Assembly (NCBI GenBank): GCA_958295725.1
Contig: OY282368.1
Coordinates: 1,282,124-1,346,123, forward strand
Direction: 5' to 3'
DNA from: an uncultured Alphaproteobacteria bacterium
GTDB taxonomy: Bacteria > Pseudomonadota > Alphaproteobacteria > UBA2966
Length of the DNA stretch: 64,000 nt
In this document: in pieces, positions 39,339 to 59,813 of the stretch
How the letters are laid out: each line of letters starts with the position of its first letter
Position numbering within the stretch: the first letter of the stretch is position 1
The notes under the pieces: model-generated
What the model saw: only the letters and a program-made list of their open reading frames with translations
Database searches by the model: none
Told to the model about the DNA's origin: nothing
Translations under genes and position numbers: made by a program

Positions 39339-39423
39339 GGTTTCCCGTTATTCCCTTGCGATCCGGCGGGGGACGGAGGCGATCGTTCCAGTCTTCCGCC
39401 TCGATTATACACCACGTCGAAAG

Positions 39424-39917: not shown

Positions 39918-39961
39918 GCATATTCCCGGAGCGCCAACCCGGCGCGCGACGGATTTTGACC

Positions 39962-41350: not shown

Positions 41351-41375
41351 CCTCTGTTAACGACAGCGACGGATT

Positions 41376-41405
41376 TTGACCTTGCGGCGTCGTTCGTGGT
41401 AGGAT
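41376..41405 (+). promoter_or_regulatory. Candidate sigma70-type promoter of SLP gene copy 1 (TTGACC-N18-TAGGAT)
   Basis: The same element with TAGGGT as the -10 is present at 56531-56560 upstream of copy 2. Its position just upstream of the 13-bp repeat tract would put the repeats in the 5' UTR. Confidence 0.3.
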
Positions 41406-41419
41406 AAGGTTGCGAACTT

Positions 41420-41549
41420 CACGGGGCCTCTTCACGGGGCCTCTTCACGGGGCCTCTTCACGGGGCCTCTTCACGGGGCCTCTTCACGGGGCCTCTTCAC
41501 GGGGCCTCTTCACGGGGCCTCTTCACGGGGCCTCTTCACGGGGCCTCTT
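41420..41549 (+). repeat. Simple sequence repeat (CACGGGGCCTCTT)x10 between the putative promoter and the RBS of the SLP gene
   Basis: Exactly 10 perfect 13-bp units. The RBS GGAGG lies 9 nt after the tract and the ATG is at 41573. Confidence 0.9.
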
Positions 41550-41572
41550 CAGGAAGCGGAGGTCCTGTTCCG

Positions 41573-42904
41573 ATGTTCTTCAGCAGTGCTCGTGGATTCG
41601 TCTTGTCGGCGGTGGCGTGCGCCCTCGTTCTCATTCTCTCCGGCTGCGGCGGCGGCGGGAGCAGCAGCGGCACCGCGCCTCCTCCGGGACGGTCGATGGC
41701 GCAACTCGATCCCGAGCCGACGCCGGCACCAACGCCAACGCCGGAGCCGACGCCGCCGGAGACGCTGAGTAATGCGCTGGCTGTTGAAACGATACAGCCG
41801 GGTGCCGTGCTGGGGATCGAGAAGGCCATCGGCGCCGAACCAAAGGCCAGCAGCAGCACGCTGTCTAGCATCACACAGTCTTCGAATACGGACGCTGATG
41901 GTGTCACGACCGACCAAGTGGAGATATTCGCGGAGTACGGAGCCACCACACCCCGTTTTTCGGTGACAAACGGAGCCGAATGGGCCATCGGCATGGATGA
42001 AGGAAATCCCATGGCGATACAGGGCTTCGACCAATCTTGGAAAGGTGCTCAGTTGATCAACACTCATCTCTCCCATATCTCCGGGGGCACCTTGTACGTC
42101 GATGCCTACACGAACATCGAGGCGCCGACGACGGAGAATGTGCCGGGACCTTCCCAAATAGTAAGGAGAGGTGATACAGTAGGCGGTGTCTTCTTTTCCA
42201 TACCGTCCTCCGGAACTCTGAACGGCGAAGATGGCGAGTTTGAGTGTGGCTCTTCTACATGTTCTTTCAACTACCGGCGGGACTTCTCCGGCCGCGGCCC
42301 CGTTACCGATATCTCAGGGACCGTCTTATTCACCCCAGCCTCTACAACGCGCACAGACACCGACTATCTGGCCGGTGGGGTCTGGCTGTTCGTTCCCGAC
42401 ACTGCGTCAAGCACCGACGACTACGTATTCGGCGTCTTTGCGCGCGGCGAGGATCCTTTCAATCAAGGGCGGATCATGGCTCTAACCGGCAGCGCGACGT
42501 ATATGGGGGGCGCCACCGGGAAATATTCGCAAAAGGATGGTAGTTCGACCACCATCGGATCCTTCGAGGCCGACGTTAGCCTGACGGCCAGCTTTGGTGC
42601 TGCCGACAGCCTTGGTACGATCAGCGGTACGATCACCGATTTCGAATTGGACGGTGAGGCGACCGCGGGCAGCTTGACCTTGGGAGAGGCCGCTATCGGC
42701 TCCGCCAACAGCGGCTTCTTCAAGGGTGCGGTGGGCGGCTCGGATGGCTCCCGCACATACGCTGGCAAGTGGGGTGGCCAGTTCTTCGGCAACGGGGCGG
42801 CCAGTACCGACCATCCGGGATCGGTTGCCGGGACGTTCGGCGCACAGTCCACGGACGAGGCTGTGAACTACATCGGCTTTTTCGGCGCGGACCGGGAGCA
42901 GTAA
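41573..42904 (+). CDS. Surface lipoprotein with TbpB/fHbp-like C-terminal beta-barrel (putative Slam/T11SS cargo), copy 1
   Basis: Lipobox LILSGC followed by a Gly/Ser/Pro-rich linker. Handle-domain-like motifs (ATYMGGATGKY, FEADVSLTASFG...LGTISGTI). C-terminal barrel signature YAGKWGGQFFGNGA...GSVAGTFGA...YIGFFGADREQ. Confidence 0.65.
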   Translation: MFFSSARGFVLSAVACALVLILSGCGGGGSSSGTAPPPGRSMAQLDPEPTPAPTPTPEPTPPETLSNALAVETIQPGAVLGIEKAIGAEPKASSSTLSSITQSSNTDADGVTTDQVEIFAEYGATTPRFSVTNGAEWAIGMDEGNPMAIQGFDQSWKGAQLINTHLSHISGGTLYVDAYTNIEAPTTENVPGPSQIVRRGDTVGGVFFSIPSSGTLNGEDGEFECGSSTCSFNYRRDFSGRGPVTDISGTVLFTPASTTRTDTDYLAGGVWLFVPDTASSTDDYVFGVFARGEDPFNQGRIMALTGSATYMGGATGKYSQKDGSSTTIGSFEADVSLTASFGAADSLGTISGTITDFELDGEATAGSLTLGEAAIGSANSGFFKGAVGGSDGSRTYAGKWGGQFFGNGAASTDHPGSVAGTFGAQSTDEAVNYIGFFGADREQ

Positions 42905-42971
42905 CGCGATATCCAATCTCGCAACCCCGAACGGGAGAAGGGCGGCCCCGCGGCTGCCCTTCTTTTTCTCC

Positions 42972-44327
42972 ATGATGACGATGAAGTGGATCTGCGCCCT
43001 CGCCGTCGCCGTTCTGGTCCACGCTTCGGCGCTCGCCGCTTCCGACCGTTCCCATCTGTCCTCCGACCCCCGGGTCAACGACGCCCGGACACTCATCGAA
43101 AGCGGCCGCTTCGCCGAGGCGCTGGACGTCCTGCGCCCGCTGGCGCCGGACCATCCGGACCGGACGGACGTCCTCTTCCTCCTCGGTCTGGCCGCCGTCG
43201 AGGCCTCCCGGCGGGCCGACACCGGGGAAGCGGAACGGACCGTCCTGCTCGACGAGGCCATCGCCGCGCTCCGCGCCATCCTGATCGATCGGCCGGGTCT
43301 CGTGCGCGTGCGCCTGGAGCTGGCGCGGGCGTTCTTCCTCAAGCGCGAGGACGACCTCTCGCGCGAGCATTTCGAGCGCGTGCTGGCCGGCGGGCCGTCG
43401 CCGGCGATGGTCGCCAACATCCGCCGTTATCTGGCGGAAATGCGGGAGCGCCGGCGTTGGAGCGCCTGGTTCGGCGCGGCGCTGGCGCCGGACAGCAATC
43501 TCAACACGGCCTCGGACTCGGACGTCATCTACATCCGCGGCCTGCCGTTCCGCCGCGGGGCGGACGCGGGCCCCCGCTCGGGGGTGGGCGCCATCCTCTG
43601 GACGGGCGGCGAATACCAGCACCCCCTCGGCCAGCGCCTGCGCCTGCGCGCGGGCGCCGACCTCGCTCGCCGGGAGTATGCCGGAAGCGGCTTCGATCGG
43701 ACCTTTCTGTCCGGGCACGTCGGGCCGCGCTGGCTGGCGGACGCGAAGACCGAGGCGAGCCTGCTCGCCAGCGCCCGGCGCAGCTGGAGAGCCGGGGCGC
43801 CGGAGAGCCATGACCTCGGCGCCCGTCTGGAGGGCGAGCGCCGCTTCTCCCGACGCGTGACGGCGAGCGCGCGAACCTCCCTGCACTGGCGCGAATACCG
43901 GAGCGACCGACGCCTCGACGGGCCGGTTTTCGATCTCTCCCTGGGCGCCGCATGGCTCGCGACGCCGACCGTGCGGTTCGACGCGACGCTCGGCTATGCG
44001 CGTGAACGTCCGGGGCGAACGGTCTGGCGCAATACCAGCCGATGGGCGCGGGCCGGTTTCTCCATGGCGCTGCCGCTGGGCTTCACCGTCGGCGTCGGCG
44101 GTGAGTTGCGCCGGACAAGGTACGAGGGCCGGTCGCCGTACACGCTCGGCGGCGCGTCCCGCGAGGACCGGGTCCGGGTGCTGCGGATCTCGACGTTCAA
44201 TCGGGTCTTCACCCTGTACGGATACAGTCCGCGGCTCGTGCTGGCGAACGAGGCGCGCGACTCCAACGCGCAATTGCACGACTACAAGCGCAATCGCGCC
44301 GAATTGCGATTCGTGCGGCAGTTCTAG
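42972..44327 (+). CDS. Slam (surface lipoprotein assembly modulator)/DUF560 outer-membrane protein, type XI secretion, copy 1
   Basis: Signal peptide. N-terminal TPR-like periplasmic region. DUF560 onset motif RWSAWFGAALAPDSNLN. An alternating beta-strand-rich C-terminal half ending in the aromatic residue (RFVRQF) typical of OM barrels. Confidence 0.7.
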   Translation: MMTMKWICALAVAVLVHASALAASDRSHLSSDPRVNDARTLIESGRFAEALDVLRPLAPDHPDRTDVLFLLGLAAVEASRRADTGEAERTVLLDEAIAALRAILIDRPGLVRVRLELARAFFLKREDDLSREHFERVLAGGPSPAMVANIRRYLAEMRERRRWSAWFGAALAPDSNLNTASDSDVIYIRGLPFRRGADAGPRSGVGAILWTGGEYQHPLGQRLRLRAGADLARREYAGSGFDRTFLSGHVGPRWLADAKTEASLLASARRSWRAGAPESHDLGARLEGERRFSRRVTASARTSLHWREYRSDRRLDGPVFDLSLGAAWLATPTVRFDATLGYARERPGRTVWRNTSRWARAGFSMALPLGFTVGVGGELRRTRYEGRSPYTLGGASREDRVRVLRISTFNRVFTLYGYSPRLVLANEARDSNAQLHDYKRNRAELRFVRQF

Positions 44328-44520
44328 GCTCAGGATTCATAACCGGACCTGCTCATCCGCACGACTCGTCCAGCGACGGGAGTGCCGATCATGGACTTCA
44401 TCGCCGTCGGGTCCATCCATACTCCCCCCTGAAAGGGGGAGGAGTGGCGCACCGGACATTGCCGTCTTGACGATTCCGGTGTCGCGCGGGTGGAATCGCC
44501 GTGGGGTCTCGCTCCCGGTC

Positions 44521-44555
44521 CCCGGCGTGGCGATCCGCACAATCCGCACACCGTC
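44521..44555. repeat. Solitary copy of the terminal variant of the 45-bp repeat unit
   Basis: CCCGGCGTGGCGATCCGCACAATCCGCACACCGTCGG. It matches the last unit of the array at 39424-39917, including the ...CCGTCGG ending. Confidence 0.85.
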
Positions 44556-44973
44556 GGACCCTGCGAGCGTTCCAGATAAAACCACTATATGTCGTATTTC
44601 CTGTGTCATGAATATCGATATATGGTATCGTCGAGGGGGTTATCGAAACGATCCTCGCCGAGTCGCGGGACTATGGCCCCCTCCCGACTTCCTCCCTGAC
44701 CAAGGGGGAGAAGTATGAACGGATCCGGCGGATGAACCCCGGCTCGGCACTCCACCGACCGCGCGGCCGACGAGTTCCCAACGTCCCGCATGTAGCGAAC
44801 CAGGACATGCAATGGACAAATACACCGAGTTGGTGCTATCGATCGGACGCTGAAGGGAAGGGAGGCCCGATAGTCCCGGAAATCGCGAATCCGGCGGCGG
44901 TCGTGCGAACCGCCGCCCGGGAACCCGAACCCGACGCCGGAACGTGGCTACCGAAGATTCAAGGAGTACCCTC

Positions 44974-45699
44974 ATGACGGAGACGACCACCCTCGCATCC
45001 CAGGCGGAGTCGCTGACGTCGCTGCTGGGGTTGTCCGACCCCCCGCTCGCCATCACGTTCTCGTCCGAGGCGCCGGACGGCGTGAAACGTTTCGACGCCG
45101 CGATGCCGGAGCCGACGCCGGACGGTCGGACGGGCCGGGTCGCCGCGAGCTGCGTGTTCTGGATCAAGGCTCGCGATCGGACATTCACGACGGTGGCGGA
45201 GGACCACGGCAATTGCAGCGTCGGTTCGCTGACCCACGGGTTCAAGACCTTGGAGGAGGCGGCGGCCGGCGCCGACGTAGCGGCGCTGGTCGAGTCGGAG
45301 TGGGTGACGCCCGACGTGTTCCCGCACATCCCGACGGTGAACGAGAAGCCCGGGTTCGTCACCTACGGCCCCCTCGCCGAATCCCCGGCCGCCCCGGACG
45401 TCGTGTTCCTCCGGCTGAACGGCAAGCAGGCCATGATGCTGCATGACGCCTGGCCCGACCTTCGCGTCGAGGGTAAGCCCCAGTGCCACATAATCCCCAT
45501 CGCCAAGGAGGGCGGCGAGGTCGCGGTGAGCGTCGGCTGCATGTTGAGCCGCGTTCGCACGGGCATGAGCAACAACGAGGTCACGTGCGCCATTCCGACG
45601 ACCAGGCTGGGCGAGCTCCTCGAGCGTCTCGAGACGGCGAACGCCGCCGACATGAAGGTGGCGGCCTACGCCGCGGCGGACGCCAAACGTTTCGCATAG
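44974..45699 (+). CDS. DUF169 (COG2043, ArCR-type) domain protein
   Basis: About 240 aa. Conserved Cys/His pattern (ASCVFW...HGNCSVG...CHIIPIA...VGCMLSR). RBS AAGGAG. Confidence 0.5.
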   Translation: MTETTTLASQAESLTSLLGLSDPPLAITFSSEAPDGVKRFDAAMPEPTPDGRTGRVAASCVFWIKARDRTFTTVAEDHGNCSVGSLTHGFKTLEEAAAGADVAALVESEWVTPDVFPHIPTVNEKPGFVTYGPLAESPAAPDVVFLRLNGKQAMMLHDAWPDLRVEGKPQCHIIPIAKEGGEVAVSVGCMLSRVRTGMSNNEVTCAIPTTRLGELLERLETANAADMKVAAYAAADAKRFA

Positions 45700-45791
45700 G
45701 GCCCGGGCCCGCCTTCGCCCCCCCTGGGAGCACGGAGCGGAAGCCGCGTCTCCGGAGCGTCCGTCGAGGCCGGAGAAGGGGGGGAGGCGCG

Positions 45792-46784
45792 ATGTCCGAC
45801 ACGATTCCCGTCATTGACGTCGCCGACTTCATGGCCGGCTCGGCGCGGGGATTGGAGGACGCCGCGCGTGGGGTGCGCGAGGCCCTGACGACGGTCGGCT
45901 TCTTCGTCCTCACGGGACACGGCGTGCCGTGGACGCGGATCGACAGGGCATTCGACGCCGCCGCGCGGCTGCACGCCTTGCCCATGTCCAGGAAGCTCGC
46001 CCTGAGGATGAACGAGCACAACAACGGGTACATGGCCCTGGGCCATTACGCGGTCTGGACGTCGGAGGTGAACGACAACGACCGGCCCGACCTGAACGAG
46101 GCTTTCTTCGTCCGGCGCGAACGGCCCGACGACGACCCCGTGTACGCGTCGGGACGGCGTTTCCTCGGGCCCAACCGATGGCCCGACGAGGACGACCTGC
46201 CGGGATTCCGCGCCGAGATCCTCGCCTACACGGGCACCCTCGAGGCGCTGGCGCGCCGCTTCCTGCCCGTCGCCGCCCGGGCTCTCGACCTCCGGCCGGA
46301 CTGGTTCGACGGGTTCTTCGCGGACGCCTACTACATCCTGCGCCTGTCCCATTATCCCCCGGTGGAGGCGGAGACCAACCAGTTCGGGATCGCGCCGCAC
46401 ACCGACGCCAATTTCCTGACATTCCTGCCGCTCGCCGACGTTCCCGGGCTCCAGGTGCGTATGCCCGGCGGCGAATGGAAGGACGTGCCCCGCGTTCCCG
46501 GCGCCTTCGCCGTGAATTCCGGCGACATCGTGAAGCGTTGGTCGAACGGGCGCTTCAGGTCGACCCCGCACCGGGCGCTGCCGCCGGTGGGCCGGGACCG
46601 CTACGCCCTGCCGTTCTTCTTCGGCCCGGACTGGGACGCGACCATCGAATGCCTGCCGGGTTGCGGCGGGCCGGACGATCCGCCGCGCTGGCCGGCGATC
46701 ACTTACGGCGAGTGGATGACGGGCTGGTACGACGCCAACTACGACCACAAGGTCCAGGAACGGGCGACCGCGCGCCGCCACTGA
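45792..46784 (+). CDS. 2-oxoglutarate/Fe(II)-dependent oxygenase (isopenicillin-N-synthase-like)
   Basis: HxD...H facial-triad context (APHTDANFLTFL ... RFRSTPHRA) and an N-terminal DIOX_N-like region (IPVIDVADF). Confidence 0.7.
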   Translation: MSDTIPVIDVADFMAGSARGLEDAARGVREALTTVGFFVLTGHGVPWTRIDRAFDAAARLHALPMSRKLALRMNEHNNGYMALGHYAVWTSEVNDNDRPDLNEAFFVRRERPDDDPVYASGRRFLGPNRWPDEDDLPGFRAEILAYTGTLEALARRFLPVAARALDLRPDWFDGFFADAYYILRLSHYPPVEAETNQFGIAPHTDANFLTFLPLADVPGLQVRMPGGEWKDVPRVPGAFAVNSGDIVKRWSNGRFRSTPHRALPPVGRDRYALPFFFGPDWDATIECLPGCGGPDDPPRWPAITYGEWMTGWYDANYDHKVQERATARRH

Positions 46785-46873
46785 GTTTCCGTTCCCGGCT
46801 CCGGCTCCCGGGTTCGTCCTTGCGGTTCCCGCGGCGCGCGGATTATCAAGATCGCCGACGGGAGGGACCGCGT

Positions 46874-47800
<927 letters not shown>

Positions 47801-47804
47801 ACCG

Positions 47805-49331
47805 GTGACGGACGCCACGGCGCCGCCTCCGTCCGCTCCCGGGCCGTTCCATGTGCGGGGCGCGCTGAAGGAGGCCGGCCTCGCGGCGTTCGTCATGCTC
47901 GGCCTGAGCCTCGCCCTGATCGGGGCGCGCATCGACGACGTGTCCGGTGGGTTGGCGGTCCGGTGGCGACCGTTCGACGTCCTCGCGGCCGTCGTCGTGG
48001 CGTTTCTCGGGCGGCTCGGTCTCGCGTTCCTGCGCGCCGGCCGTCCGGCGCCCGTGGCGCTGGCCTCGGGGCTGTCCTGCGCGGCGCTGGCGCCGTTGCT
48101 GGCAGTCTCGGCGACCGGCGGCGGTGCGGCGGACTGGGCGCGGACGGCGCTCCCGTTCAGCGGTTTCGCCGTCAACGTCCTCGTTCTCGTCGTCGTCGTC
48201 GTCCTGGCGTTGCGCGCCGGGCTGGCCTGGCGCTTCGGCGCACGGGCCGGCGCGAGAGCGAGAGCGGGCGCGCCCGGGGCGGAGACGATGGACCGGCTCG
48301 CGTCTGTGGCGCGGCGCGCCGCCGTCCACGCCGTTCCCGTCCTTCTCCTGGCGGCGGTGCTCTTCCCGTTCCTGCCCTTCGCCGACCGCCGCATCCTCGA
48401 CATCGCCATCCTCGTGGTCACCTACGTCATGCTCGGCTGGGGACTGAACATCGTGGTCGGGCTGGCCGGCCTCCTCGATCTGGGATACGTCGCCTTCTAC
48501 GCTGTCGGCGCCTACGCCTACGCCCTGCTGGCGACGGAAATGGGCCTCGGCTTCTGGCTCTGCCTGCCGTTCGCCGGCGTCATGGCGGCGCTGGCGGGCG
48601 TGCTTCTGGGGTTCCCGGTGCTGCGCCTGCGCGGCGACTATCTCGCCATCGTCACGCTCGGTTTCGGCGAGATGATCCGCATCGTCCTGCTGAACTGGTA
48701 CGAGGTCACGAACGGCCCGGACGGCATCTCCGGCATTCCGAAGCCCACGTTCTTCGGCCTCCCGTTCGTGCGCTCTCCGCCGGAGGGTACAGAGTCGTTC
48801 CACACCTTCTTCGGGCTGGCTTACGCGCCCATCGACCGGATCGTCTTCCTCTACTATGTGATCCTGGCGATGGCGCTGATCACCAACCAGTTCACGTTAC
48901 GGATCCGCAAGCTGCCCGTGGGCCGCGCCTGGGAGGCTCTGCGCGAGGACGAGACGGCCAGCCGGTCGCTCGGGATCAACCCCCGCAACACCAAGCTCAC
49001 GGCGTTCGGCATCGGCGCGATGTTCGCCGGTTTCGCGGGATCGTTCTTCGCGACGCGCCAGGGCTTCATCAGTCCGGAGAGCTTCGTATTCATCGAATCG
49101 GCGGTGATCCTGGCGATCGTCGTGCTCGGCGGCATGGGAAGCCAGGTCGGCGTGGTGCTCGCCGCCGTCCTGCTGATCGGCCTGCCCGAGATATTCCGGG
49201 ATCTCCAGGAATTCCGGATGCTGGCGTTCGGGGCCACCATGGTGTTGATCATGACCTGGCGGCCACGCGGGCTCCTGGCCCATCGCGAGCCCACGATCCG
49301 CCTGTCCGGGAAGGGAGCGGTCAGGCGATGA
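47805..49331 (+). CDS. livM: Branched-chain amino acid-type ABC permease (LivM-like), second operon
   Basis: 508 aa. Long N-terminal extension followed by the LivM core ([31 protein letters not shown]). Confidence 0.85.
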
Positions 49332-50227
49332 CGACGGCGCCCGATACCACGGAGCCGGCCCGGCCGTTCTCGCCGCCGCAGCGGCCGCTGCTCGACGTCG
49401 AGCACCTGACGATGCGGTTCGGTGGCCTCGTGGCCGTCGACGACGTCTCCTTCGCCGCCGCGCCGGGGGACATCACGGCGATCATCGGACCCAACGGGGC
49501 GGGCAAGACGACCGTGTTCAACTGCCTGACAGGCTTCTATCGGCCATCGGTCGGGCGCCTCGCGCTGCGCGGGAACGGGCGCGAGTACCTGCTCGAGCGC
49601 ATGGAGTGCCACGACATCGCCCGGGCCGGCATGGCGCGGACGTTCCAGAGCATCCGGCTGTTTCCGCGGATGTCCGCGTTCGAGAACCTCGTCGTCGCCC
49701 AGCACAACAAGCTGATGCGGGCGTCGGGGTACACGGTGTTCGGACTGCTGGGGACGCGGAGCTACGCGGAGGCGGAGGCCGGGGCCGTGGAGCTCGCCCG
49801 GTACTGGCTGGAGAAGATCGGGCTGGTGGACCGCGCGGACGACGACGCGGGCAACCTCGCCTACGGACAGCAGCGTCGGCTGGAAATCGCGCGGGCGATG
49901 TGCACGGAGCCGCTGCTCCTCTGCCTGGACGAGCCCGCAGCGGGCCTGAACCCGCGCGAGTCGGCGGAGCTGGAGGAACTCCTGCTCTTCGTCCGGGAAC
50001 GGCACGACGTCGGCATCCTGCTGATCGAACACGACATGAGCGTGGTCATGAAGATATCCGATCGCATCGTGGTCCTCGATCACGGGCGGAAGATCGCCGA
50101 CGGAACGCCGGCGGCGGTCCGCGGCGCCCCGGCCGTGATCCGCGCTTATCTCGGCGAGGCGGACGGCGCCGACACCGACACTCATACCCGCGCGGACACC
50201 CGCCGGGACGCGGGCATGGGCGCGTGA
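49328..50227 (+). CDS. livG: ABC ATP-binding protein (LivG-like), second operon
   Basis: ATGA overlap with the preceding gene. Walker [10 protein letters not shown]. Confidence 0.85.
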
Positions 50228-51329: not shown

Positions 51330-51506
51330 CAACGACATGGACCCGTTCGACAAGACGGCGAGGATCCCGGGCGCGGGCGGCAACGGCGTGACGAACGCGG
51401 AAGCTCCCGGTTCGACAGGGCGCGTCGCGGCGTGCTACATTGCGAGCGTCACGAGCGTCGATACCCACCGGAAAAGTAAGGCGCCCCGGAGATCGAGGAG
51501 CACGTC

Positions 51507-52592
51507 ATGTCCGCAGCCGAGGAATTGACCGATTACGCCATGCCGCCCGACGAGATCGCCGGGCCGAGCGTCTGGTACGGCCCCGAAATGGCCGCACGGG
51601 AAGACACGTGGCTTCGTCCCTTCGACGAGAAGGAGCTCGCCGAGCTCGACGCCGCCATGCGGGACGTGAAATCCCGAGGTCTCGACATTCTGGACATCGA
51701 CAGAAACGCTTTCCCGTTACCCACGCTTTCGCCGGTCTTCGACGAGATCCGTCGCGAGCTGCTGCGCGGCCGCGGTTTCGTCCTGATGCGCGGAATCCCG
51801 GTGGAGCGCTATTCCATCGAGGAATCGGCGATCGTCTATTTCGGCATCGGCTCGCACTTCGGTCTCTCCCTGCCGCAGAACGCCAGGGGGCACGTGCTGG
51901 GACACATCAGGGACGTCGGCCGCCATGAGTTCGATACCAAATCGCGCATCTACCAGACCAACGCGCGTCAGACCTTCCATTCGGATACCGCAGACATCAT
52001 CGGCCTTATGTGCCTGCATCCGGCCAGGAAAGGCGGGGAGTCGGCAGTCGTCTCGTCCGACACTCTCTACAACGAGGTGCGCCGCCGCCGTCCGGACCTG
52101 CTGCCGCTGCTCTTTCAGCCCTACGCCACGGACTGGCGTAACGAGGCGCCGGACGGAGGCGAGGGCCATTACTCCGTGCCGGTCCTCAGTTGGCACGCGG
52201 GACGGCTCTACTGCCGGTACGCGCGGCGCTACATCGATTCGGCCCAGCGTTTCGATGACGTGCCGCCGCTGACGGAGCGGGAGGTCGAGGCACTCGATTT
52301 CTTCGACTCGGTGGCGGACGATCCCGCCATCCACCTGAAGATGGAGTTCAAGGCGGGGGACATTCAACTGATCCACAACCACCAGACCCTGCACGACCGC
52401 ACCGAGTTCGAGGACTGGCCGGAACCCGAGCGCAAGCGCCACCTGTTGCGGCTGTGGCTCAACTGCGTGGACGGCTTGCCGTTACCGGAATCCTTGCGGC
52501 CCCGCTATCGCGAGCTCGAAATCGGGAGCCCGTTGCGCGGCGGCCTCCGCGTCCCCGGCCAAGTCCTTGTCGCGCCCCTCGAGGCGGAGTAG
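51507..52592 (+). CDS. TauD/TfdA-family Fe(II)/2-oxoglutarate dioxygenase
   Basis: HxD motif (FHSDTAD) and a distal His (HNHQTLHDR) in a TauD-like fold. 361 aa. Confidence 0.7.
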   Translation: MSAAEELTDYAMPPDEIAGPSVWYGPEMAAREDTWLRPFDEKELAELDAAMRDVKSRGLDILDIDRNAFPLPTLSPVFDEIRRELLRGRGFVLMRGIPVERYSIEESAIVYFGIGSHFGLSLPQNARGHVLGHIRDVGRHEFDTKSRIYQTNARQTFHSDTADIIGLMCLHPARKGGESAVVSSDTLYNEVRRRRPDLLPLLFQPYATDWRNEAPDGGEGHYSVPVLSWHAGRLYCRYARRYIDSAQRFDDVPPLTEREVEALDFFDSVADDPAIHLKMEFKAGDIQLIHNHQTLHDRTEFEDWPEPERKRHLLRLWLNCVDGLPLPESLRPRYRELEIGSPLRGGLRVPGQVLVAPLEAE

Positions 52593-52678
52593 CTCCCGGC
52601 CGCGGCAGACGGCCGAAACGGTCGGACAGCGGTCTCCGGGGCGACGCCGACGCGGAGGACGGGGAAGGGGGATATCCG

Positions 52679-54127
52679 TTACTCCAGCCCCACCCAGACG
52701 CTCTTCTGCTGGAGATACTCGCGGATCATGGCGGAGCCCGACTCGCGCCCGAGACCGGATTTCTTGTAGCCGCCGAAGGGCATCATCGGGGACTGCTGGC
52801 GATAGGTATTGATCCACACCGTTCCGGCCTGCACGCCACGGGCGACCCTGTGCGCGCGGCCCAGGTTCTCGGTCCAGATACCGGCGGCGAGACCGAAGTC
52901 GATGTCGTTGGCGATACTCACGGCCTCGTCGTCGTCCTTGAAGCGGATGACCGAGAGGACGGGACCGAATATCTCCTCCCGCGCCACGCGCATCCCGTTG
53001 TCGACGCCGTCGAACACGGTGGCCTCGATGAAGCGGCCGTCGCCGCATTCCGGCCCGGCGCCCCGGTTGCCCCCGCACACGAGCTCCGCGCCCTCCGCCT
53101 TGGCCACATCGACGTATTCCATGATCTTGTCGAACTGCGAGGCGGTGGCCACGGGACCGAGTTGCGTGTCTTCACGGGTCGGGTCGCCCATCTTCCGGGA
53201 GGCGGCGACGGCGGCGATGGCGGTCACGACCTCCCTGTGGATATCCTCCTGGATCAGGAGGCGCGAGCCGGCGATGCAGGTCTGGCCGGTCGAGGCGAAA
53301 ATGCCGGCGACGACTCCGGGGACGGCTTTTTCCAGGTCCGCGTCGGCGAACAGGATATTGGGGGACTTGCCGCCGAGCTCCAGCGTCACGCGCTTGAGAT
53401 GCCTGGCGCCGGCCTCGTAGACCCGTGCGCCGGCCTCGGTGCTCCCGGTAAAGGCGATCTTGGCGGTCAGCGGGTGCTCGACCAGCGCCATGCCCGCTTC
53501 GCCGCCGCCGCCGGTGACGACGTTGACGACACCTGCCGGAAACCCGGCCTCCTCCACGAGACGCATGAAGACGAGGGTCGATGTCGAGGTGTTGCTGGAG
53601 GGCTTGACGACCATGGTGTTGCCCGCCGAGAGCGCCGGGGCGAGCTTCCATGACAGCAACCTGAGCGGGGAGTTCCACGGCGTGACGGCGACGCAGACGC
53701 CGACCGGCTCGAAGCGCGTGTAGTTGAGGAACCTGTCCTCGTCGACGGGAACGGTGTCGCCCTGGACCTTGTCAGCGAGACCCCCGTAGTAACGATACCA
53801 GCCGGCCATGGTGCGCATCTGGTTACGAGTCTCGCCGATGACCTTGCCGTTATCGCGCGTTTCGGCCTGGGCGAGTTCCTCGGCGTTCTCCAGGACCAGA
53901 TCGCCCAGCCGGCCCAGGAGCCCGCCGCGGTCGGACGCCTTCATCTTCGGCCACTCGCCGGTCGTGAAGGCGCGGTGCGCCGCCCGCACGGCCCGGTCGG
54001 CGTCCGTGGCGTCGGCCTTGGCGACCCTGGCCCAGGGCGCGGCGGTGTAAGGGTTGTCCGTGTCGAACCAGGCGCCGGCGGCGGCCTCGCGGCGCTCGCC
54101 GTCGATATACATGCCGAAGTGTTCCAT
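52679..54127 (-). CDS. NAD(P)-dependent aldehyde dehydrogenase
   Basis: ALDH catalytic motifs LELGGKSP and FASTGQTCIAGSRLL (catalytic Cys) and the C-terminal PFGGYKKSG motif. Confidence 0.9.
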   Translation of the reverse strand: MEHFGMYIDGERREAAAGAWFDTDNPYTAAPWARVAKADATDADRAVRAAHRAFTTGEWPKMKASDRGGLLGRLGDLVLENAEELAQAETRDNGKVIGETRNQMRTMAGWYRYYGGLADKVQGDTVPVDEDRFLNYTRFEPVGVCVAVTPWNSPLRLLSWKLAPALSAGNTMVVKPSSNTSTSTLVFMRLVEEAGFPAGVVNVVTGGGGEAGMALVEHPLTAKIAFTGSTEAGARVYEAGARHLKRVTLELGGKSPNILFADADLEKAVPGVVAGIFASTGQTCIAGSRLLIQEDIHREVVTAIAAVAASRKMGDPTREDTQLGPVATASQFDKIMEYVDVAKAEGAELVCGGNRGAGPECGDGRFIEATVFDGVDNGMRVAREEIFGPVLSVIRFKDDDEAVSIANDIDFGLAAGIWTENLGRAHRVARGVQAGTVWINTYRQQSPMMPFGGYKKSGLGRESGSAMIREYLQQKSVWVGLE

Positions 54128-54206
54128 GAGGTCGCGTCTCTCCGTCGTGGATGTTCTCGTGAATTCGGGTGCGGATCGACCGTGTAGCGGAGTATGTCGG
54201 CTTCAT

Positions 54207-54329
54207 CCCATCGAGCGCATGTTCGACAGAATCAAGGACTGGCGGCGTATCGCCACACGATACGACCGATGCGCCCACACCTTCTTCAGCGCCATCTGCA
54301 TCGCCGCTACCGTCATCTTCCGGTTATGA
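54207..54329 (+). pseudogene. C-terminal remnant of an IS5-family transposase
   Basis: IERMFDRIKDWRRIATRYDRCAHTFFSAICIAATVIFRL matches the conserved IS5/IS427 transposase C-terminus (ERFFxxIKxxRRIATRYDK). No upstream catalytic domain was found. Confidence 0.6.
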
Positions 54330-54579
54330 GTCCCGAGCCCGGATTTCCGACCGGACCCGACGTCCGGTCAACCCGTGATTCCATTTCTTGAAAATTCGCC
54401 AGGGCAACTGCATGGATGGGAATATATCGAAAAGGGTTGGGGGCCGTTCATGGCCGGGGGAGGGGCCTGCTCCGCGGTCGCCGATAGTCTCCTCCTTCCC
54501 GCGTTCCTCACGATGGGCCGCCGTTCCCGACCGCGCCGCGGGCGGCCGGGCCGCTCTACGCGGCCGCCCGCGGCGCGGC

Positions 54580-54882
54580 CTACGGAAGCAGCTTGAGCAA
54601 GGCGAAGGTCAAGCCGGCGTTGGCGAGCACGATGCCGACGGCAATCCCGACGAACCGGACGGTCACGCGGGTTTCGAGGGCGGCAAGGTCGGCTTTCGTC
54701 GCCATCTTGTCCTCGATGTGTTCGATCTTGTCTTCAAGGTGGGCGATGTCGGTCTTGGCGGCGACGCCTCCGGTGATGGCGTCGCGAACCGTCGCCACGA
54801 CGCTTTCGGCCTGGCGTTCGTCGAACCCGGCTTCCCGGAGCGCCTTGGCGGCGGCGCAGGTGTCGAAGGCGGTAGCGGTCAT
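54580..54882 (-). CDS. DUF1640-like small coiled-coil/TM protein, tandem paralogue 1 of 5
   Basis: N-terminal MTATAFDTCAAAKALREAGFDERQAE, a central coiled coil, and C-terminal TM GIAVGIVLANAGLTFALLKLLP. Confidence 0.5.
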   Translation of the reverse strand: MTATAFDTCAAAKALREAGFDERQAESVVATVRDAITGGVAAKTDIAHLEDKIEHIEDKMATKADLAALETRVTVRFVGIAVGIVLANAGLTFALLKLLP

Positions 54883-54909
54883 GCGGCGGTTCCCCCGGTC
54901 GGGCGCGGC

Positions 54910-55173
54910 CTACGGAAGCAGCTTGAGCAAGGCGAAGGTCAAGCCGGCGTTGGCGAGAACGATGCCGACGGCAATCCCGACGAACCGGACGGTCATGCGG
55001 GTTTCGAGGGCGGCAATCTCGATCCTGAGGTCAGCTTTGGTCGCCAGTTCGTTCCGGTCGGCGGCAGTGGCGTCGCGCATGACGGCGACGGCGGCTTCGG
55101 CCTGGCGTTCGTCGAACCCGGCTTCCCGAAGGGTCTTGGCGGCGGCGCAGGTGTCGAAGGCGGTAGCGGTCAT
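54910..55173 (-). CDS. DUF1640-like small coiled-coil/TM protein, tandem paralogue 2 of 5
   Basis: Same N- and C-terminal modules with a different central segment. Start trimmed to MTATAF. Confidence 0.5.
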   Translation of the reverse strand: MTATAFDTCAAAKTLREAGFDERQAEAAVAVMRDATAADRNELATKADLRIEIAALETRMTVRFVGIAVGIVLANAGLTFALLKLLP

Positions 55174-55199
55174 GCGGCGGTTCCCCGGTCGGGCGCGGC

Positions 55200-55451
55200 C
55201 TACGGAAGCAGCTTGATGAGCGCGACGACGGCGGCGACGATGGCTCCGGCCTGCATCCACGAGGCGCGGTACATCCGCGCTTCGAGAGCGGCAATCTCGA
55301 TCCTGAGGTCAGCTTTGGTCGCCAGTTCGTTCCGGTCGGCGGCAGTGGCGTCGCGCATGACGGCGACGGCGGCTTCGGCCTGGCGTTCGTCGAACCCGGC
55401 TTCCCGAAGGGTCTTGGCGGCGGCGTAGGTGTCGAAGGCAGTGGCGGTCAT
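55200..55451 (-). CDS. DUF1640-like small coiled-coil/TM protein, tandem paralogue 3 of 5
   Basis: Same N-terminus. The C-terminal TM has diverged (WMQAGAIVAAVVALIKLLP). Confidence 0.5.
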   Translation of the reverse strand: MTATAFDTYAAAKTLREAGFDERQAEAAVAVMRDATAADRNELATKADLRIEIAALEARMYRASWMQAGAIVAAVVALIKLLP

Positions 55452-55506
55452 GCGGCGGTTCCCCGGTCGGGCGCGGCCTACGGAAGCAGCTTGAGGGCGG
55501 CGCCGA

Positions 55507-55758
55507 TCAAGCCGCCGGCGGAAGCAGCTTGAGCAAGGCGAAGGTCAAGCCGGCGTTGGCGAACACGATCCCGATAGCGACCTTGAGCATGTCGGCCTTG
55601 AGATCGGCGAGATCGGCCTTGTCGGCCTTGGTGGCCATCTTGTCTTCAAGGCGGGCGATGTCGGTCTTGGTGGCGACGCCTTCGGCCTGGCGTTCGTCGA
55701 ACCCGGCTTCCCGGAGCGCCTTGGCGGCGGCGCAGGTGTCGAAGGCGGTGGCGGTCAT
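55507..55758 (-). CDS. DUF1640-like small coiled-coil/TM protein, tandem paralogue 4 of 5
   Basis: Same N-terminus and a shortened central region. A 3' duplication scar (LKLLPPAA plus a vestigial repeat at 55490-55520). Confidence 0.45.
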   Translation of the reverse strand: MTATAFDTCAAAKALREAGFDERQAEGVATKTDIARLEDKMATKADKADLADLKADMLKVAIGIVFANAGLTFALLKLLPPAA

Positions 55759-55784
55759 GCGGCGGTTCCCCGGTCGGGCGCGGC

Positions 55785-56024
55785 CTACGGAAGCAGCTTG
55801 AGCAAGCCGACGATGAGCACGGCCTGTCCGGCGGCGACGGCGAAGACGAAGCGGACCAGCCGGGTTTCGAGGTTGGCGAGATCGGCCTTCGTCGCCAGCG
55901 TGTCCCGCTCGGCGGCAGTGGCGTCGCGCATGACGGCGACGGCGGCTTCGGCCTGGCGTTCGTCGAACCCGGCTTCCCGAAGAGTCTTGGCGGCGGCGTA
56001 AGTGTCGAAGGCGGTGGCGGGCAT
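55785..56024 (-). CDS. DUF1640-like small coiled-coil/TM protein, tandem paralogue 5 of 5
   Basis: MPATAFDTYAAAKTLREAGFDERQAE... The track ORF extends to 56090, and the start is uncertain. Confidence 0.45.
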   Translation of the reverse strand: MPATAFDTYAAAKTLREAGFDERQAEAAVAVMRDATAAERDTLATKADLANLETRLVRFVFAVAAGQAVLIVGLLKLLP

Positions 56025-56186
56025 GAAGCGATCATGGGCCATCACGGGTCCTTGCGCAAGTTCCGCACGGTCCCGCAACATCCCGTCCATGCCCGTTTCA
56101 GATTGTTGGCGAAATTGGGGGTGTAATCCGATGTCCAGAAGAAATATCGCATTTTTCTGTGGATTTCAGGACATTTAGCGGCGGAT

Positions 56187-56230
56187 TCCCAATCCGCAGG
56201 CCGGAGGTTCGAATCCCTCCGGGGTCGCCA
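56187..56230 (+). other. tRNA-Gly(CCC)-like 3' fragment (anticodon arm, imperfect T-arm, acceptor 3' strand plus CCA) lacking a 5' half
   Basis: GCGGA-TTCCCAA-TCCGC stem-loop with anticodon CCC. GGTTCGAATCC T-loop. ...GGGGTCGCCA at the end. The upstream 30 nt cannot form the D-arm or acceptor 5' strand. Confidence 0.35.
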
Positions 56231-56574
56231 AGCCTCTCCTTCCAGAAACCCTGGAGAAACAGCGACTTTCACGGAACGAGGCCAAAGAAATTGGCTCGAT
56301 TGGCGAATCGCAGGCATGTCCCGGCCGTGGCGGTCGGACATGGCAGCCTCTCCTATATCCGGGGAACCTGAACCACATGCCGCTCGAATACTGAATGCCG
56401 CTTACAGGTCCTGAGCCTGGCGACACACGACCGCACCGGGCACTCGACGGACATACCCCTGCCGAGTACCTTCACTCGCTCACAGCCAATGAGACCCCAT
56501 CGTCTCATATATCCTGAACCAGGACGAATTTTGACCTTGCGGCGTCGTTCGTGGTAGGGTAGGGTTGCGAACTT

Positions 56575-56605
56575 CACGGGGCCTCTTATCTTCACGGGGC
56601 CTCTT
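56575..56605 (+). repeat. Two copies of the CACGGGGCCTCTT unit (separated by ATCTT) upstream of SLP gene copy 2
   Basis: Same promoter-proximal context as 41420-41549, but 2 units rather than 10. Confidence 0.85.
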
Positions 56606-56628
56606 ATTAAGAAACAGAGAGGTTCCGA

Positions 56629-58164
56629 ATGTCTATCAACGGTACGAGTGGATTCGTCTTGTCGGCGGCGGCGTGCGCGATCGTGCTGTCCGGCTGCGGC
56701 GGCGGCGGCGGCGGCTCGTCGCCGGCGAAAGAGATCGCGGATTTGGCCGAAGGCGGCCGTCTACAGATCATGAAAGCCGCCGGGAACGACCCCGCGCCGA
56801 GCGGCAGCGTGATGCAATCCTCGAATGCGACGGACGGCGTGACGAAGGACAGCATCGGCGTCATGGCAAAGCACGAGAACGGGCAGGTGACGTTCGCCGT
56901 AGACTACGACGACGGCTCCGGGGGAGACCCCGAGATAACGATGGGCACGGCGGACGACCTGCGCGCGAGGTTCTCCGGCGACGTCATTTGCGAACAGTGC
57001 GACGCCAAGCCGTTCAGCGGCAACGCCAGGTGGAACGGCGCCGAACTGCGAAAGTCGTACGGGGACGGAACGTTGTGGGTCGATGTCTACACGGATATCG
57101 AGAAACCGACGACGGAGACGGTGACGACCGGCGGCGACGCTCCTCAAACCGGCGATGGCACCCGGGATGTTCCTACCGGGACGCGGATATCGTTTACGCA
57201 ATTCATCGGAGGCCGCGTCGACATCGATAGGCCAGGTGGGTTTAGCACTCTTGGGACACTGGATGGCGCTATGGGTACGTTCACGTGCCCGTCGAGTTGT
57301 GTTGTCAGTAACCACATCGTGGCAGGGGGGAGTTGGACCTTCACCCCCACCCGGCCGCCGGGAGCCCTTGACGTTCTAAGCAACGCGGCCGGCGTCGTCC
57401 TTACAGGGAACTTCGATGAGACTCGAACTGACGGCACCTTCAACGGCGCGGCGGGATACTTCAAATGCCTGTCCCGGTTGACGGGAAGTTGCGGTCGTGG
57501 CGTATCGAACGGCCGCACTACGCTCAGTGGCGAGTGGGTATTCATTCCCACCACCCCCACGCCAGCAGGTACGACGACGACACGCACCGTACAGGATGCC
57601 GACTATCTGGCCGGCGGAGTCTGGTTGTACGTTCCGGAGAGCGGCGACGCTTATCAGTTCGGCGCCTTCGTAGACGGCGGCCAGCCCTTTCTCCAGAGCC
57701 GTATCGAGGGCCTGACGGGCACCGCGAAGTATGCAGGAGACGCGACCGGTATCTACGTGGAAAAGGAATCCTCCACCGCCGCCGCCGAGATCGGATATTT
57801 CGACGCGGAGGTGACGTTGACGGCCGACTTCGGCACGAATGCCGAGCTGGGAACGATCCGTGGAGTCATCGATAACTTCGTCGAGGAGTCGACCGACGAG
57901 GCCATTGTCGGGGATCCGGAGGTGACGCTGCGGCAGGCTGACATCGGGTCCGCGGACAGCGGTTTCTTCAAGGGCAAGACGACGGCAACCCTCTCCGGCA
58001 GAGAGTTCACCGGCAAATGGGGTGGCCAGTTCTACGGCAACGGCGCCACCGCCACCGCCCACCCCGGTTCCGTCGCCGGCACGTTCGGCGGCGCGGCGCC
58101 GGAGAACGCCGACGACGGTTACGAAGCCTCGTTCGTAGGGGCGTACGGGGCCTACAAACAGTAA
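56629..58164 (+). CDS. Surface lipoprotein with TbpB/fHbp-like C-terminal beta-barrel (putative Slam/T11SS cargo), copy 2
   Basis: Lipobox VLSGC plus a Gly-rich linker. Its central region differs from copy 1. Conserved handle motifs (AKYAGDATGIY, FDAEVTLTADFG...LGTIRGVI) and C-terminal barrel (FTGKWGGQFYGNGA...GSVAGTFGG...FVGAYGAYKQ). Confidence 0.65.
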   Translation: MSINGTSGFVLSAAACAIVLSGCGGGGGGSSPAKEIADLAEGGRLQIMKAAGNDPAPSGSVMQSSNATDGVTKDSIGVMAKHENGQVTFAVDYDDGSGGDPEITMGTADDLRARFSGDVICEQCDAKPFSGNARWNGAELRKSYGDGTLWVDVYTDIEKPTTETVTTGGDAPQTGDGTRDVPTGTRISFTQFIGGRVDIDRPGGFSTLGTLDGAMGTFTCPSSCVVSNHIVAGGSWTFTPTRPPGALDVLSNAAGVVLTGNFDETRTDGTFNGAAGYFKCLSRLTGSCGRGVSNGRTTLSGEWVFIPTTPTPAGTTTTRTVQDADYLAGGVWLYVPESGDAYQFGAFVDGGQPFLQSRIEGLTGTAKYAGDATGIYVEKESSTAAAEIGYFDAEVTLTADFGTNAELGTIRGVIDNFVEESTDEAIVGDPEVTLRQADIGSADSGFFKGKTTATLSGREFTGKWGGQFYGNGATATAHPGSVAGTFGGAAPENADDGYEASFVGAYGAYKQ

Positions 58165-58204
58165 CGCCGCAGGCCGTCCCGAAACGGAAAGAAGGCATCG
58201 CGAG

Positions 58205-59578
58205 ATGCCTTCTTTTTCGTTCGCGCCCCGGCTGTTCGGCGCGCTCGCCGCCGTCCTGTTCCTTCTCCCGGTCCTCGCGACCGTCGCGGCTTCCGACCGT
58301 TCCCACCTGTCCTCCGACCCCCGGGTCAACGACGCCCGGACACTCATCGAAAGCGGCCGCTTCGCCGAGGCGCTGGACGTCCTGCGCCCGCTGGCGCCGG
58401 ACCATCCGGACCGGACGGACGTCCTCTTCCTCCTCGGTCTGGCCGCCGTCGAGGCCTCCCGGCGGGCCGACACCGGGGAAGCGGAACGAACCGTCCTGCT
58501 CGACGAGGCCATCGCCGCGCTCCGCGCCATCCTGATCGATCGGCCGGGTCTCGTGCGCGTGCGCCTGGAGCTGGCGCGGGCGTTCTTCCTCAAGCGCGAG
58601 GACGACCTCTCGCGCGAGCATTTCGAGCGCGTGCTGGCCGGCGGGCCGTCGCCGGCGATGGTCGCCAACATCCGCCGTTATCTGGCGGAAATGCGGGAGC
58701 GCCGGCGTTGGAGCGCCTGGTTCGGCGCGGCGCTGGCGCCGGACAGCAATCTCAACACGGCCTCGGACTCGGACGTCATCTACATCCGCGGTCTGCCGTT
58801 CCGCCGCGGGGCGGACGCGGGCCCCCGCTCGGGGGTGGGCGCCATCCTCTGGACGGGCGGCGAATACCAGCACCCCCTCGGCCAGCGCCTGCGCCTGCGC
58901 GCGGGCGCCGACCTCGCTCGCCGGGAGTATGCCGGAAGCGGCTTCGATCGGACCTTTCTGTCCGGGCACGTCGGGCCGCGCTGGCTGGCGGACGCGAAGA
59001 CCGAGGCGAGCCTGCTCGCCAGCGCCCGGCGCAGCTGGAGAGCCGGGGCGCCGGAGAGCCATGACCTCGGCGCCCGTCTGGAGGGCGAGCGCCGCTTCTC
59101 CCGACGCGTGACGGCGAGCGCGCGAACCTCCCTGCACTGGCGCGAATACCGGAGCGACCGACGCCTCGACGGGCCGGTTTTCGATCTCTCCCTGGGCGCC
59201 GCATGGCTCGCGACGCCGACCGTGCGGTTCGATGCGACGCTCGGCTATGCGCGTGAACGCCCGGGGCGAACGGTCTGGCGCAATACCAGCCGATGGGCGC
59301 GGGCCGGTTTCTCCATGGCGCTGCCGCTGGGCTTCACCGTCGGCGTCGGCGGTGAATTGCGCCGGACAGGGTACGAGGGCCGGTCGCCGTACACGCTCGG
59401 CGGCGCGTCCCGCGAGGACCGGGTCCGGGTGCTGCGGATCTCGACGTTCAATCGGGTCTTCACCCTGTACGGATACAGTCCGCGGCTCGTGCTGGCGAAC
59501 GAGGCGCGCGACTCCAACGCGCAACTGCACGACTACAAGCGCAACCGCGCCGAATTGCGATTCGTGCGGCAGTTCTAG
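58205..59578 (+). CDS. Slam/DUF560 outer-membrane protein, type XI secretion, copy 2
   Basis: Mature region essentially identical to copy 1. Only the signal peptide and a few residues differ. Confidence 0.7.
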   Translation: MPSFSFAPRLFGALAAVLFLLPVLATVAASDRSHLSSDPRVNDARTLIESGRFAEALDVLRPLAPDHPDRTDVLFLLGLAAVEASRRADTGEAERTVLLDEAIAALRAILIDRPGLVRVRLELARAFFLKREDDLSREHFERVLAGGPSPAMVANIRRYLAEMRERRRWSAWFGAALAPDSNLNTASDSDVIYIRGLPFRRGADAGPRSGVGAILWTGGEYQHPLGQRLRLRAGADLARREYAGSGFDRTFLSGHVGPRWLADAKTEASLLASARRSWRAGAPESHDLGARLEGERRFSRRVTASARTSLHWREYRSDRRLDGPVFDLSLGAAWLATPTVRFDATLGYARERPGRTVWRNTSRWARAGFSMALPLGFTVGVGGELRRTGYEGRSPYTLGGASREDRVRVLRISTFNRVFTLYGYSPRLVLANEARDSNAQLHDYKRNRAELRFVRQF

Positions 59579-59813
59579 GCTCAGGACTCATAACCGGACC
59601 TGCTCATCCGCAAGACTCGTCCAGCGACGGGAGTGCCGATCATGGACTTCATCGCCGTCGGGTCCATCCATACTCCCCCCCTGAAAGGGGAAGAAGTGGC
59701 GCACCGGACATTGCCGTCTTGACGATTCCGGTGTCGCGCGGGTGGAATCGCCGTGGGGTCTCGCTCCCGGTCCCCGATGCGGCGACCCGGCGGGAGGCCG
59801 GAAGGAGGGACGG

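Follow-up and report, generated by a model that had tools for sequence, protein, structure and literature searches.

We have analyzed a 64,000-nt stretch of contig OY282368.1 from an uncultured alphaproteobacterium (the window, with a GC content of 68%), which carries two paralogous operons, each pairing a gene for a putative surface lipoprotein (the cargo) with one for a Slam protein, the outer-membrane protein (OMP) of type XI secretion. All coordinates are positions in the window unless another locus (L followed by a number) is named. The operons extend over 41376-44537 (module 1) and 56531-59789 (module 2), and their features all lie on the plus strand. Four genes were identified from the open reading frame (ORF) listing and translation. 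Module 1 comprises lip1 (41573-42904), encoding a 443-aa lipoprotein with an LSGC lipobox followed by poly-Gly, a beta handle and an eight-strand barrel, and Slam1 (42972-44327, 451 aa). Module 2 comprises lip2 (56629-58164), encoding a 511-aa paralogue that has the same LSGC lipobox and an extra cysteine-containing insertion in the handle, and Slam2 (58205-59578, 457 aa). Each operon has a promoter-like site and a repeat-containing leader before the cargo gene, and ends in a 3′ flank common to both.

Both Slam ORFs match the SlipAM model PF04575 over its full length, with scores of 58.6 bits (Slam1) and 56.8 bits (Slam2) compared with a cut-off of 22 bits, and both also match tetratricopeptide-repeat (TPR) models. 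The predicted structures have a periplasmic N-terminal TPR domain and a DUF560 barrel of 14 beta strands. A sequence search matched no solved Slam structure. At both loci the neighboring gene encodes an eight-strand-barrel lipoprotein, with a gap of 67 nt between lip1 and Slam1 and of 40 nt between lip2 and Slam2. The order cargo-then-Slam is repeated in L001, L002, L004-L006, L010, L011, L019 and others. The initial annotation had assigned these genes to Slam/DUF560, anticipated a 14-strand barrel for the translocon and an eight-strand barrel plus handle for the cargo, and recognized the Slam-cargo pair architecture; all three are borne out.

The cargo proteins begin with a signal peptide and lipobox, ...LILSGC(25)GGGG in lip1 and ...IVLSGC(23)GGGG in lip2, and lipobox and poly-Gly are found in most full-length members of the cargo family. 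The family counts over 300 homologues, every one of them either unnamed or listed as hypothetical. In the predicted folds a C-terminal eight-strand barrel follows the handle domain, and the closest solved folds include TbpB, HpuA, hemophilin and LbpB. A profile of the family compared with the sequences of the PDB gave no match at E ≤ 10, so that the link to TbpB in that search comes from the fold comparison. PF01298 (TbpB_B_D) was found in three remote homologues only (P0289, P0302 and P0308), and these bridge the cargo family to TbpB by sequence. The description of the cargos as TbpB-like is therefore upheld by the predicted fold and by PF01298 in these three homologues, but lip1 and lip2 themselves miss the TbpB and lipoprotein-5 models. 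The cargos form a new, unannotated and fast-evolving family of TbpB-like fold. The cargo in L099 (1-3768) is TbpB-like, with two lobes and a length of 747 aa; it has a Sec signal but lacks a lipobox cysteine. In L151, L152 and L153 cargo-family homologues occur as orphans with no adjacent Slam; the one in L153 has five genes for tyrosine integrases around it, an indication that a cargo gene may be mobile on its own.

The two modules are related as a mosaic. Alignment by blastn gives 98.7% identity over 1506 nt for 43033-44537 and 58284-59789, corresponding to the mature Slam coding part and ∼210 nt of 3′ flank. The promoter and first part of the repeat tract (41364-41445 and 56520-56605) are ∼90% identical, and the end of the leader with the lipoprotein signal peptide (41533-41658 and 56589-56714) is 77% identical. 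Small islands of 81-89% identity lie within the cargo genes (42360-42396 and 42764-42842). Otherwise the central 1.3-1.6 kb of the cargo genes are related at the protein level only, with 49% identity over 392 aligned codons, and the copies are unrelated over the stretch that runs from the cargo C-terminus to the end of the Slam signal peptide. The two DNA-level paralogous segments initially described are thus real as blocks, but they are not continuous. Nor is the whole Slam gene shared, as had been stated: the mature parts differ by a single residue (R vs G), but the signal-peptide regions are unrelated. The further statement that the Slams are near-identical and the cargos diverged holds, at one residue compared with 49% amino acid identity. 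A self-blast of the window revealed no further long repeat of the module type.

The high-identity block contains 10 nucleotide differences in the coding sequence, one of them non-synonymous, and nine in the flank. This divergence is about that between co-occurring strains (dS ∼0.02). The shared flanks lie at 44328-44537 and 59579-59789; their length of about 200 nt and their hairpin are as first described, with CTCCCCCCTGAAAGGGGGAG present at 44422-44441 and 59673-59693. The hairpin lacks a T-run, and a terminator scan of 41200-44700 did not report the copy in module 1. The mosaic of identities (promoter ∼90%, cargo ∼49% at the amino acid level, mature Slam 98.7%, Slam signal peptides unrelated) requires gene conversion or cassette replacement. 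Judged from these alignments, the recent duplication proposed in the initial annotation fits the existence of two real copies, but a simple event of that kind does not account for the mosaic. We suggest that near-identity of the two Slams would have been maintained by recent duplication or gene conversion, and that the exposed cargo would have been replaced and diversified.

Two HiFi long-read contigs from another assembly (ENA sample ERZ19489113), L148 and L149, are strain variants of the window, being 98-99% identical to it outside the modules, and they allow the divergence of the cargo to be followed. Comparison of lip2 in the window and L149 gives non-synonymous and synonymous divergences of dN = 0.062 and dS = 0.036, hence dN/dS = 1.72, with 89% amino acid identity. 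At similar dS the ratio is 0.09 for Slam2, 0.09 for aldehyde dehydrogenase and 0.23 for a binding protein. The changes in lip2 are concentrated in the handle, at residues ∼170-240. The locus-1 cargo allele of L148 has a 75-residue insertion and 75% identity to lip1. Within a genome a 5′ region and signal peptide can be common to different cargo bodies (lip1 and lip2 in the window, lipA and lipB in L001), and in other genomes the nearest cargo orthologues do not have this 5′ region. The cargo gene is thus cassette-like, set between conserved ends. The closest relative, L001 (2489-5920), has two tandem cargo genes, lipA and lipB, before a single Slam; their upstream regions and signal peptides are near-identical and their bodies different, the same cassette pattern as in the window.

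A promoter scan of module 1 found TTGACC, an 18-nt spacer and TAGGAT with TG before the −10 hexamer (41376-41405), which is the only sigma-70-like site in 41200-44700. By homology to this site, module 2 has TTGACC, 18 nt and TAGGGT (56531-56560). The promoter-like element is thus shared at ∼90% identity, as first noted, and it is also conserved in L148 and L149. Between the −10 hexamer and the ribosome-binding site (RBS) of lip1, TRF found 10.4 units of CTTCACGGGGCCT, all 100% identical (41417-41551). The array ends 6 nt before the Shine-Dalgarno (SD) sequence and 21 nt before the ATG at 41573. In module 2 the leader contains two units of CTTCACGGGGCCTCTTAT with 18-bp spacing (56572-56607, TRF). 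A 13-bp tract had been described as shared by the modules. The unit does occur in both leaders, but with 10.4 copies in one and only two units at 18-bp spacing in the other. There are 12 exact occurrences of the unit CACGGGGCCTCTT in the window, confined to the two leaders, and when up to two mismatches are allowed there are 13 matches, compared with 2.2 expected from shuffled sequences.

The number of units differs between near-identical genomes. Locus 1 has 10 units in the window and four in L148, and locus 2 has two in the window and seven in L149, there with 13-bp spacing and in the same place. L154, a third genome from sample ERZ19489113, has five identical units in the same position, next to a Slam 77% identical and with different flanks. 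Two variant units with GGCGCC occur in L155. More distantly related operons have the core in the same place, downstream of a promoter-like site and ahead of the RBS of the leading cargo gene: two units with 13-bp spacing in L008 (labeled Immundisolibacterales), four 14-nt variant units in L005 (labeled Nitrospinota) and at least 10 units of GGGGCCTCTTTAC in the metagenome contig L099, which starts inside the array and has a Slam that is only 27% identical.

Other repeats were found in the comparison loci. L002 (4254-4287), with a Slam 71% identical and no 13-nt repeat, has C18 within a 22-nt spacer between TTGACC and TATGGT. This is a classical homopolymer phase-variation layout that occupies the functional position of the 13-bp repeat in the window. 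Tandem repeats near Slam genes in L013, L014, L016, L020 and L025 proved to be unrelated elements resembling repetitive extragenic palindromes (REP-like). When metagenomes were scanned for GGGGCCTCT-N3-9-GGGGCCTCT, most of the matches were due to chance or to repeats in coding sequence, spaced by multiples of 3, and the only link to a Slam was L099. The unrelated metagenome contigs L040, L084, L115, L119 and L120 contain non-coding tandem repeats of the GGGGCCTCT core spaced by 13-14 nt, and their stored flanks have no Slam; the core might be a hairpin or repeat motif of wider occurrence.

The repeat is predicted to form structure in RNA. GGGGCCUC is a quasi-palindrome if G-U pairs are allowed, and adjacent units are predicted to form an 8-bp hairpin of −12.9 kcal/mol. 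In module 1, RNAfold predicts that the last unit pairs with the SD region (GGAGG, 41558-41562) in a hairpin at 41538-41568 (W1; 11 bp, −17.6 kcal/mol). In module 2 the corresponding hairpin with the SD region (GAGAGG) lies at 56593-56627 (W2; 11 bp, −16.4 kcal/mol). The same pairing is predicted in L148, L149, L154 and L099, and the SD-side sequences of the paired leaders vary (GGAGGUCCUG, GAGAGGUUCCG, GAAGGGGGCCUG and GGGAGGCCCUG). The energies of this helix range from −16.4 to −21.9 kcal/mol for W1, W2 and L099, and the z-scores of leader folding reach −4.6. We calculated the equilibrium for 0 to 14 units. Because the hairpin of the last unit with the SD is more stable than those between units, the SD is mostly closed for every n ≥ 1. 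The predicted open fraction is 4-6-fold higher for even than for odd n (0.10 vs 0.025), and the observed unit numbers of 10, 2, 4, 7 and 5 span both parities. A strict ON/OFF parity switch at equilibrium finds no support, since parity alters SD access only 4-6-fold.

Taking these data together, we put a probability of about 0.8 on the reading that the region holds a pair of paralogous Slam operons for type XI secretion, both with a promoter of their own, and that a leader repeat that occludes the SD tunes or switches their expression. The gene content, the folds, the duplication, the diversification of the cargo and the polymorphism in repeat number are directly established. By the accepted model of the Slam pathway (Huynh 2022, PMC9090332), the cargo would be exported by Sec and then acylated by Lgt, Lsp and Lnt; LolA and Skp would carry it, and Slam would recognize a motif in its C-terminal barrel and move it to the surface. 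Expression would most likely be tuned or switched by the hypervariable 13-nt repeat in the transcribed leader. The units would form stable hairpins and the last of them would occlude the RBS, so that slippage would change both mRNA structure and translation.

A number of points weigh against this reading. lip1 and lip2 have no Pfam or NCBIfam family match at E ≤ 0.01, the TbpB and lipoprotein-5 families included. The start of transcription is a prediction, and we infer surface export, transcription of the repeat and an effect of repeat number on expression. The repeat is not present in the closest orthologues L001, L019, L147 and L156, nor in family members L150-L153. RNAalifold recovers the helix between unit and SD across five leaders with one-sided changes only, two-sided covariation being absent because the unit is invariant; the comparative support for this helix is suggestive and not proof. 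Base composition alone could let a purine-rich SD and the pyrimidines after it pair with the unit. Moreover, there are exceptions to the predicted pairing of the last unit with the SD: L008 and L005, where the units pair mutually, and L155, which folds differently. Lastly, the dN/dS of lip2 could stem in part from imported recombinant segments and not from point selection.

A more far-reaching model would make the repeat a new slippage-driven riboregulator. Here quasi-palindromic anti-SD units would form a series in which the last locks the RBS and those upstream compete for the RBS; their number or parity would switch the antigen, and the device would travel with type XI secretion operons spread horizontally across phyla (Proteobacteria, Acidobacteriota, Nitrospinota and Binatia) in apparent sponge microbiomes. 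We consider this model tentative and rather doubtful. If it were true, gain or loss of units would switch or grade the translation of a fast-evolving, Slam-exported surface antigen, and this would explain how uncultured symbionts vary such an antigen. Should the regulatory idea fail, a well-supported but ordinary pair of type XI secretion paralogues remains.

The array might instead act at the level of DNA, providing operator sites or a G-rich structure of the non-template strand, or it could be a neutral minisatellite. The unit sequence is conserved across distant operons, as for a protein-binding site, GGGG runs recur every 13 nt, and similar GGGGCCTCT repeats occur in unrelated metagenome contigs. 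However, a spacing of 13 bp is out of helical phase for cooperative binding, and an intramolecular quadruplex is impossible at loci with only two units. The complementarity needs G-U pairs, which are present only in the sense-strand RNA, and the array always lies between the −10 hexamer and the RBS. In addition, the L005 variant GGAGGCCUUC retains the quasi-palindrome through a matched insertion of A and U. We therefore think it somewhat unlikely that the array works as DNA or is neutral. The idea of a G-quadruplex was dropped, as several loci have only two G-runs.

The surroundings of module 1 bear on whether it is still functional. An insertion sequence (IS) lies upstream of its promoter on the minus strand (39962-41365), recognized by Pfam helix-turn-helix (HTH) domains, inverted repeats and a 15-bp duplication. 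Its transposase ORF (40107-41282) matches HTH_28/29/23/32, the 18-bp inverted repeats are at 39982-39999 and 41329-41346, and the duplication CGACGGATTTTGACC is at 39947-39961 and 41367-41381. The IS sits exactly at the −35 box of the lip1 promoter, where the duplication rebuilds the hexamer; it is not present in L148 and may alter the expression of lip1. Between an acyl-CoA dehydrogenase gene and module 1 there is a 46-bp tandem array of 10.6 copies (39423-39909), which in L148 (4891-5519) is ∼140 bp longer than in the window. The 3′ flank of module 1 ends in a solo unit of the same array (44521-44560). Module 1 is thus bracketed by the last array unit and the solo unit, which suggests that it is a derived insertion. 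The initial annotation placed a tRNA-like fragment in this region, but ARAGORN found no tRNA or tmRNA gene in the whole window, and an Rfam scan of 39000-60500 gave nothing relevant and no tRNA-like match; the GGGGGTCGAACCC stretch of the 46-bp unit may perhaps have been the source of that reading.

It could be argued that module 1 is a decaying redundant copy and not a second functional system. In L148 (7629-8787) the locus-1 Slam is frameshifted, with a 46-bp gap relative to the window, and is truncated with a diverged C-terminus; in the window the IS occupies the −35 box of the lip1 promoter, and the module lies between units of the 46-bp array as if inserted. Yet lip1 and Slam1 are intact ORFs in the window, the promoter hexamers are kept by the 15-bp duplication, and mature Slam1 differs from Slam2 by one residue. 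Decay of module 1 is consequently improbable. L148 could tolerate this defect in its locus-1 Slam provided that both cargos are served by the other one.

The genes between the two copies are ordinary metabolic genes (DUF169, 2OG oxygenase, Liv ABC transporter, TauD and aldehyde dehydrogenase). Directly upstream of module 2 there is a 278-bp tandem array (54805-56025; L149 2315-3777), with minus-strand ORFs at ∼54580-56090. It encodes about five small paralogous proteins of 83-101 aa with a weak CCDC90-like match. An unannotated 193-aa ORF (59742-60323) follows module 2 on the same strand, and downstream, also on that strand, is a lone Peripla_BP_2 gene of the siderophore/heme/B12 type (60502-61446).

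The cargos might serve in nutrient capture, as hemophores or as TbpB/HpuA-like partners of a TonB-dependent receptor in the piracy of iron, heme or a cofactor. The nearest solved folds do include TbpB, HpuA, hemophilin and LbpB, and the Peripla_BP_2 gene lies ∼0.9 kb downstream of module 2. But the fold comparison gives similar scores for fHbp, NHBA and PmSLP, none of which is a nutrient receptor. No TonB-dependent receptor or Plug domain was found among the long ORFs scanned, neither the window nor L149 shows a permease or ATPase next to the binding protein, and many cargo homologues are orphan genes without a transporter. We therefore consider a role in nutrient capture unlikely. That the cargo is a variable surface protein exposed to the host or to phages is more likely than that it is one half of a TonB-dependent uptake receptor.

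Long reads also support the two copies, as the initial annotation required. In L148 the locus-1 module lies between acyl-CoA dehydrogenase and the 46-bp array on one side and DUF169, 2OG oxygenase and the Liv transporter on the other, and in L149 the locus-2 module lies between TauD, aldehyde dehydrogenase and the small-ORF array on one side and the binding protein on the other. That an assembler doubled one locus or collapsed a repeat is extremely improbable and already contradicted: although 98.7% identity over 1.5 kb of Slam and flank is the type of repeat prone to misassembly, the cargo genes and Slam signal peptides differ strongly between the copies, each copy has unique flanks, and the separate assembly reproduces each locus in its own context, so that the duplication is not an artefact.

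Homologues of these Slams with 46-86% identity were found at 26 genome loci, labeled Gamma- and Alphaproteobacteria, Paracoccaceae, Nitrospinota, Terriglobia/Acidiferrales, Binatia, Syntrophobacterales and Poriferihabitaceae (a gammaproteobacterial family). Slams that are 49-60% identical occur in metagenome-assembled genomes (MAGs) labeled Nitrospinota, Terriglobia/Acidiferrales, Syntrophobacterales and Binatia; those of L005, L009-L011, L014 and L016, which have these labels, are 51-56% identical to the window Slams, and some lie on Mb-scale contigs. The sequences suggest that type XI secretion may exist outside the Proteobacteria and may have been transferred recently between phyla. The literature describes it as proteobacterial (Grossman 2021, PMC8406197; PMC9100927; PMC12282271). 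Names alone suggest that the relatives come from sponge microbiomes: the bin names RHO1 and APA fit sponge species of PMC8163846, and there is the name Poriferihabitaceae. Slam and type XI secretion have been studied almost only in animal pathogens, and the window holds a complete duplicated system in an uncultured high-GC bacterium. The occurrence of close Slam homologues in MAGs assigned to several phyla suggests that a module for surface display has spread horizontally through a host-associated community.

The modules share much with the Slam1-TbpB, Slam1-fHbp and Slam2-HpuA systems of Neisseria, Moraxella and Haemophilus (PMC5449769, PMC9090332). In both, a TPR and 14-strand DUF560 protein is encoded beside a lipobox protein with a handle and eight-strand barrel, there are two Slam paralogues per genome, and the cargo is antigenically variable. 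They differ in that the modules have no adjacent TonB-dependent receptor, the cargo matches no curated TbpB or lipoprotein-5 hidden Markov model, the host is uncultured and of high GC content (68%), and the two Slams are near-identical and not diverged specialists. The type XI systems of hemophilin and NilC (PMC8406197, PMC9100927, PMC12282271) have the same operon logic of cargo and DUF560 OMP, with a variable N-terminal effector or handle and a conserved C-terminal barrel in the cargo, and non-lipidated cargo occurs here too (L099). Those systems are described as proteobacterial, whereas close Slam homologues are found here in MAGs labeled as other phyla. In marine cluster 3 of a cargo survey (PMC12282271) barrel cargo is rarely beside an OMP, whereas in the present family it is.

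The system itself is of a known type, and the leader repeat is possibly a new regulatory variant. These loci add three things: a cargo that diversifies next to a translocon that is conserved, a hypervariable repeat in the leader that is found again in distant operons, and a predicted structure that sequesters the SD. The Neisseria surface proteins porA, opc and hpuA undergo phase variation through homopolymers in the promoter or ORF. The window resembles these in having a contingency-type simple repeat at a Slam cargo or surface antigen, and L002 has its C18 within the 22-nt spacer; in contrast to the Neisseria tracts, the window repeat lies downstream of the −10 hexamer, leaving promoter spacing and reading frame unaffected. 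By analogy, the leader repeat resembles a contingency locus such as the 7-bp repeat in the 5′ untranslated region of hmw1A and hmw2A in Haemophilus influenzae, whose action involves a hairpin in the leader and RNase III (PMC12721329). In both cases a perfect repeat of polymorphic number, part of a stable leader hairpin, separates the promoter of a surface-protein gene from its start codon. The hmw unit, however, pairs with a separate G-rich arm, whereas the window unit is 13 nt long and quasi-palindromic, its copies are predicted to pair mutually and the last of them with the SD, and its sequence is common to operons in different phyla.

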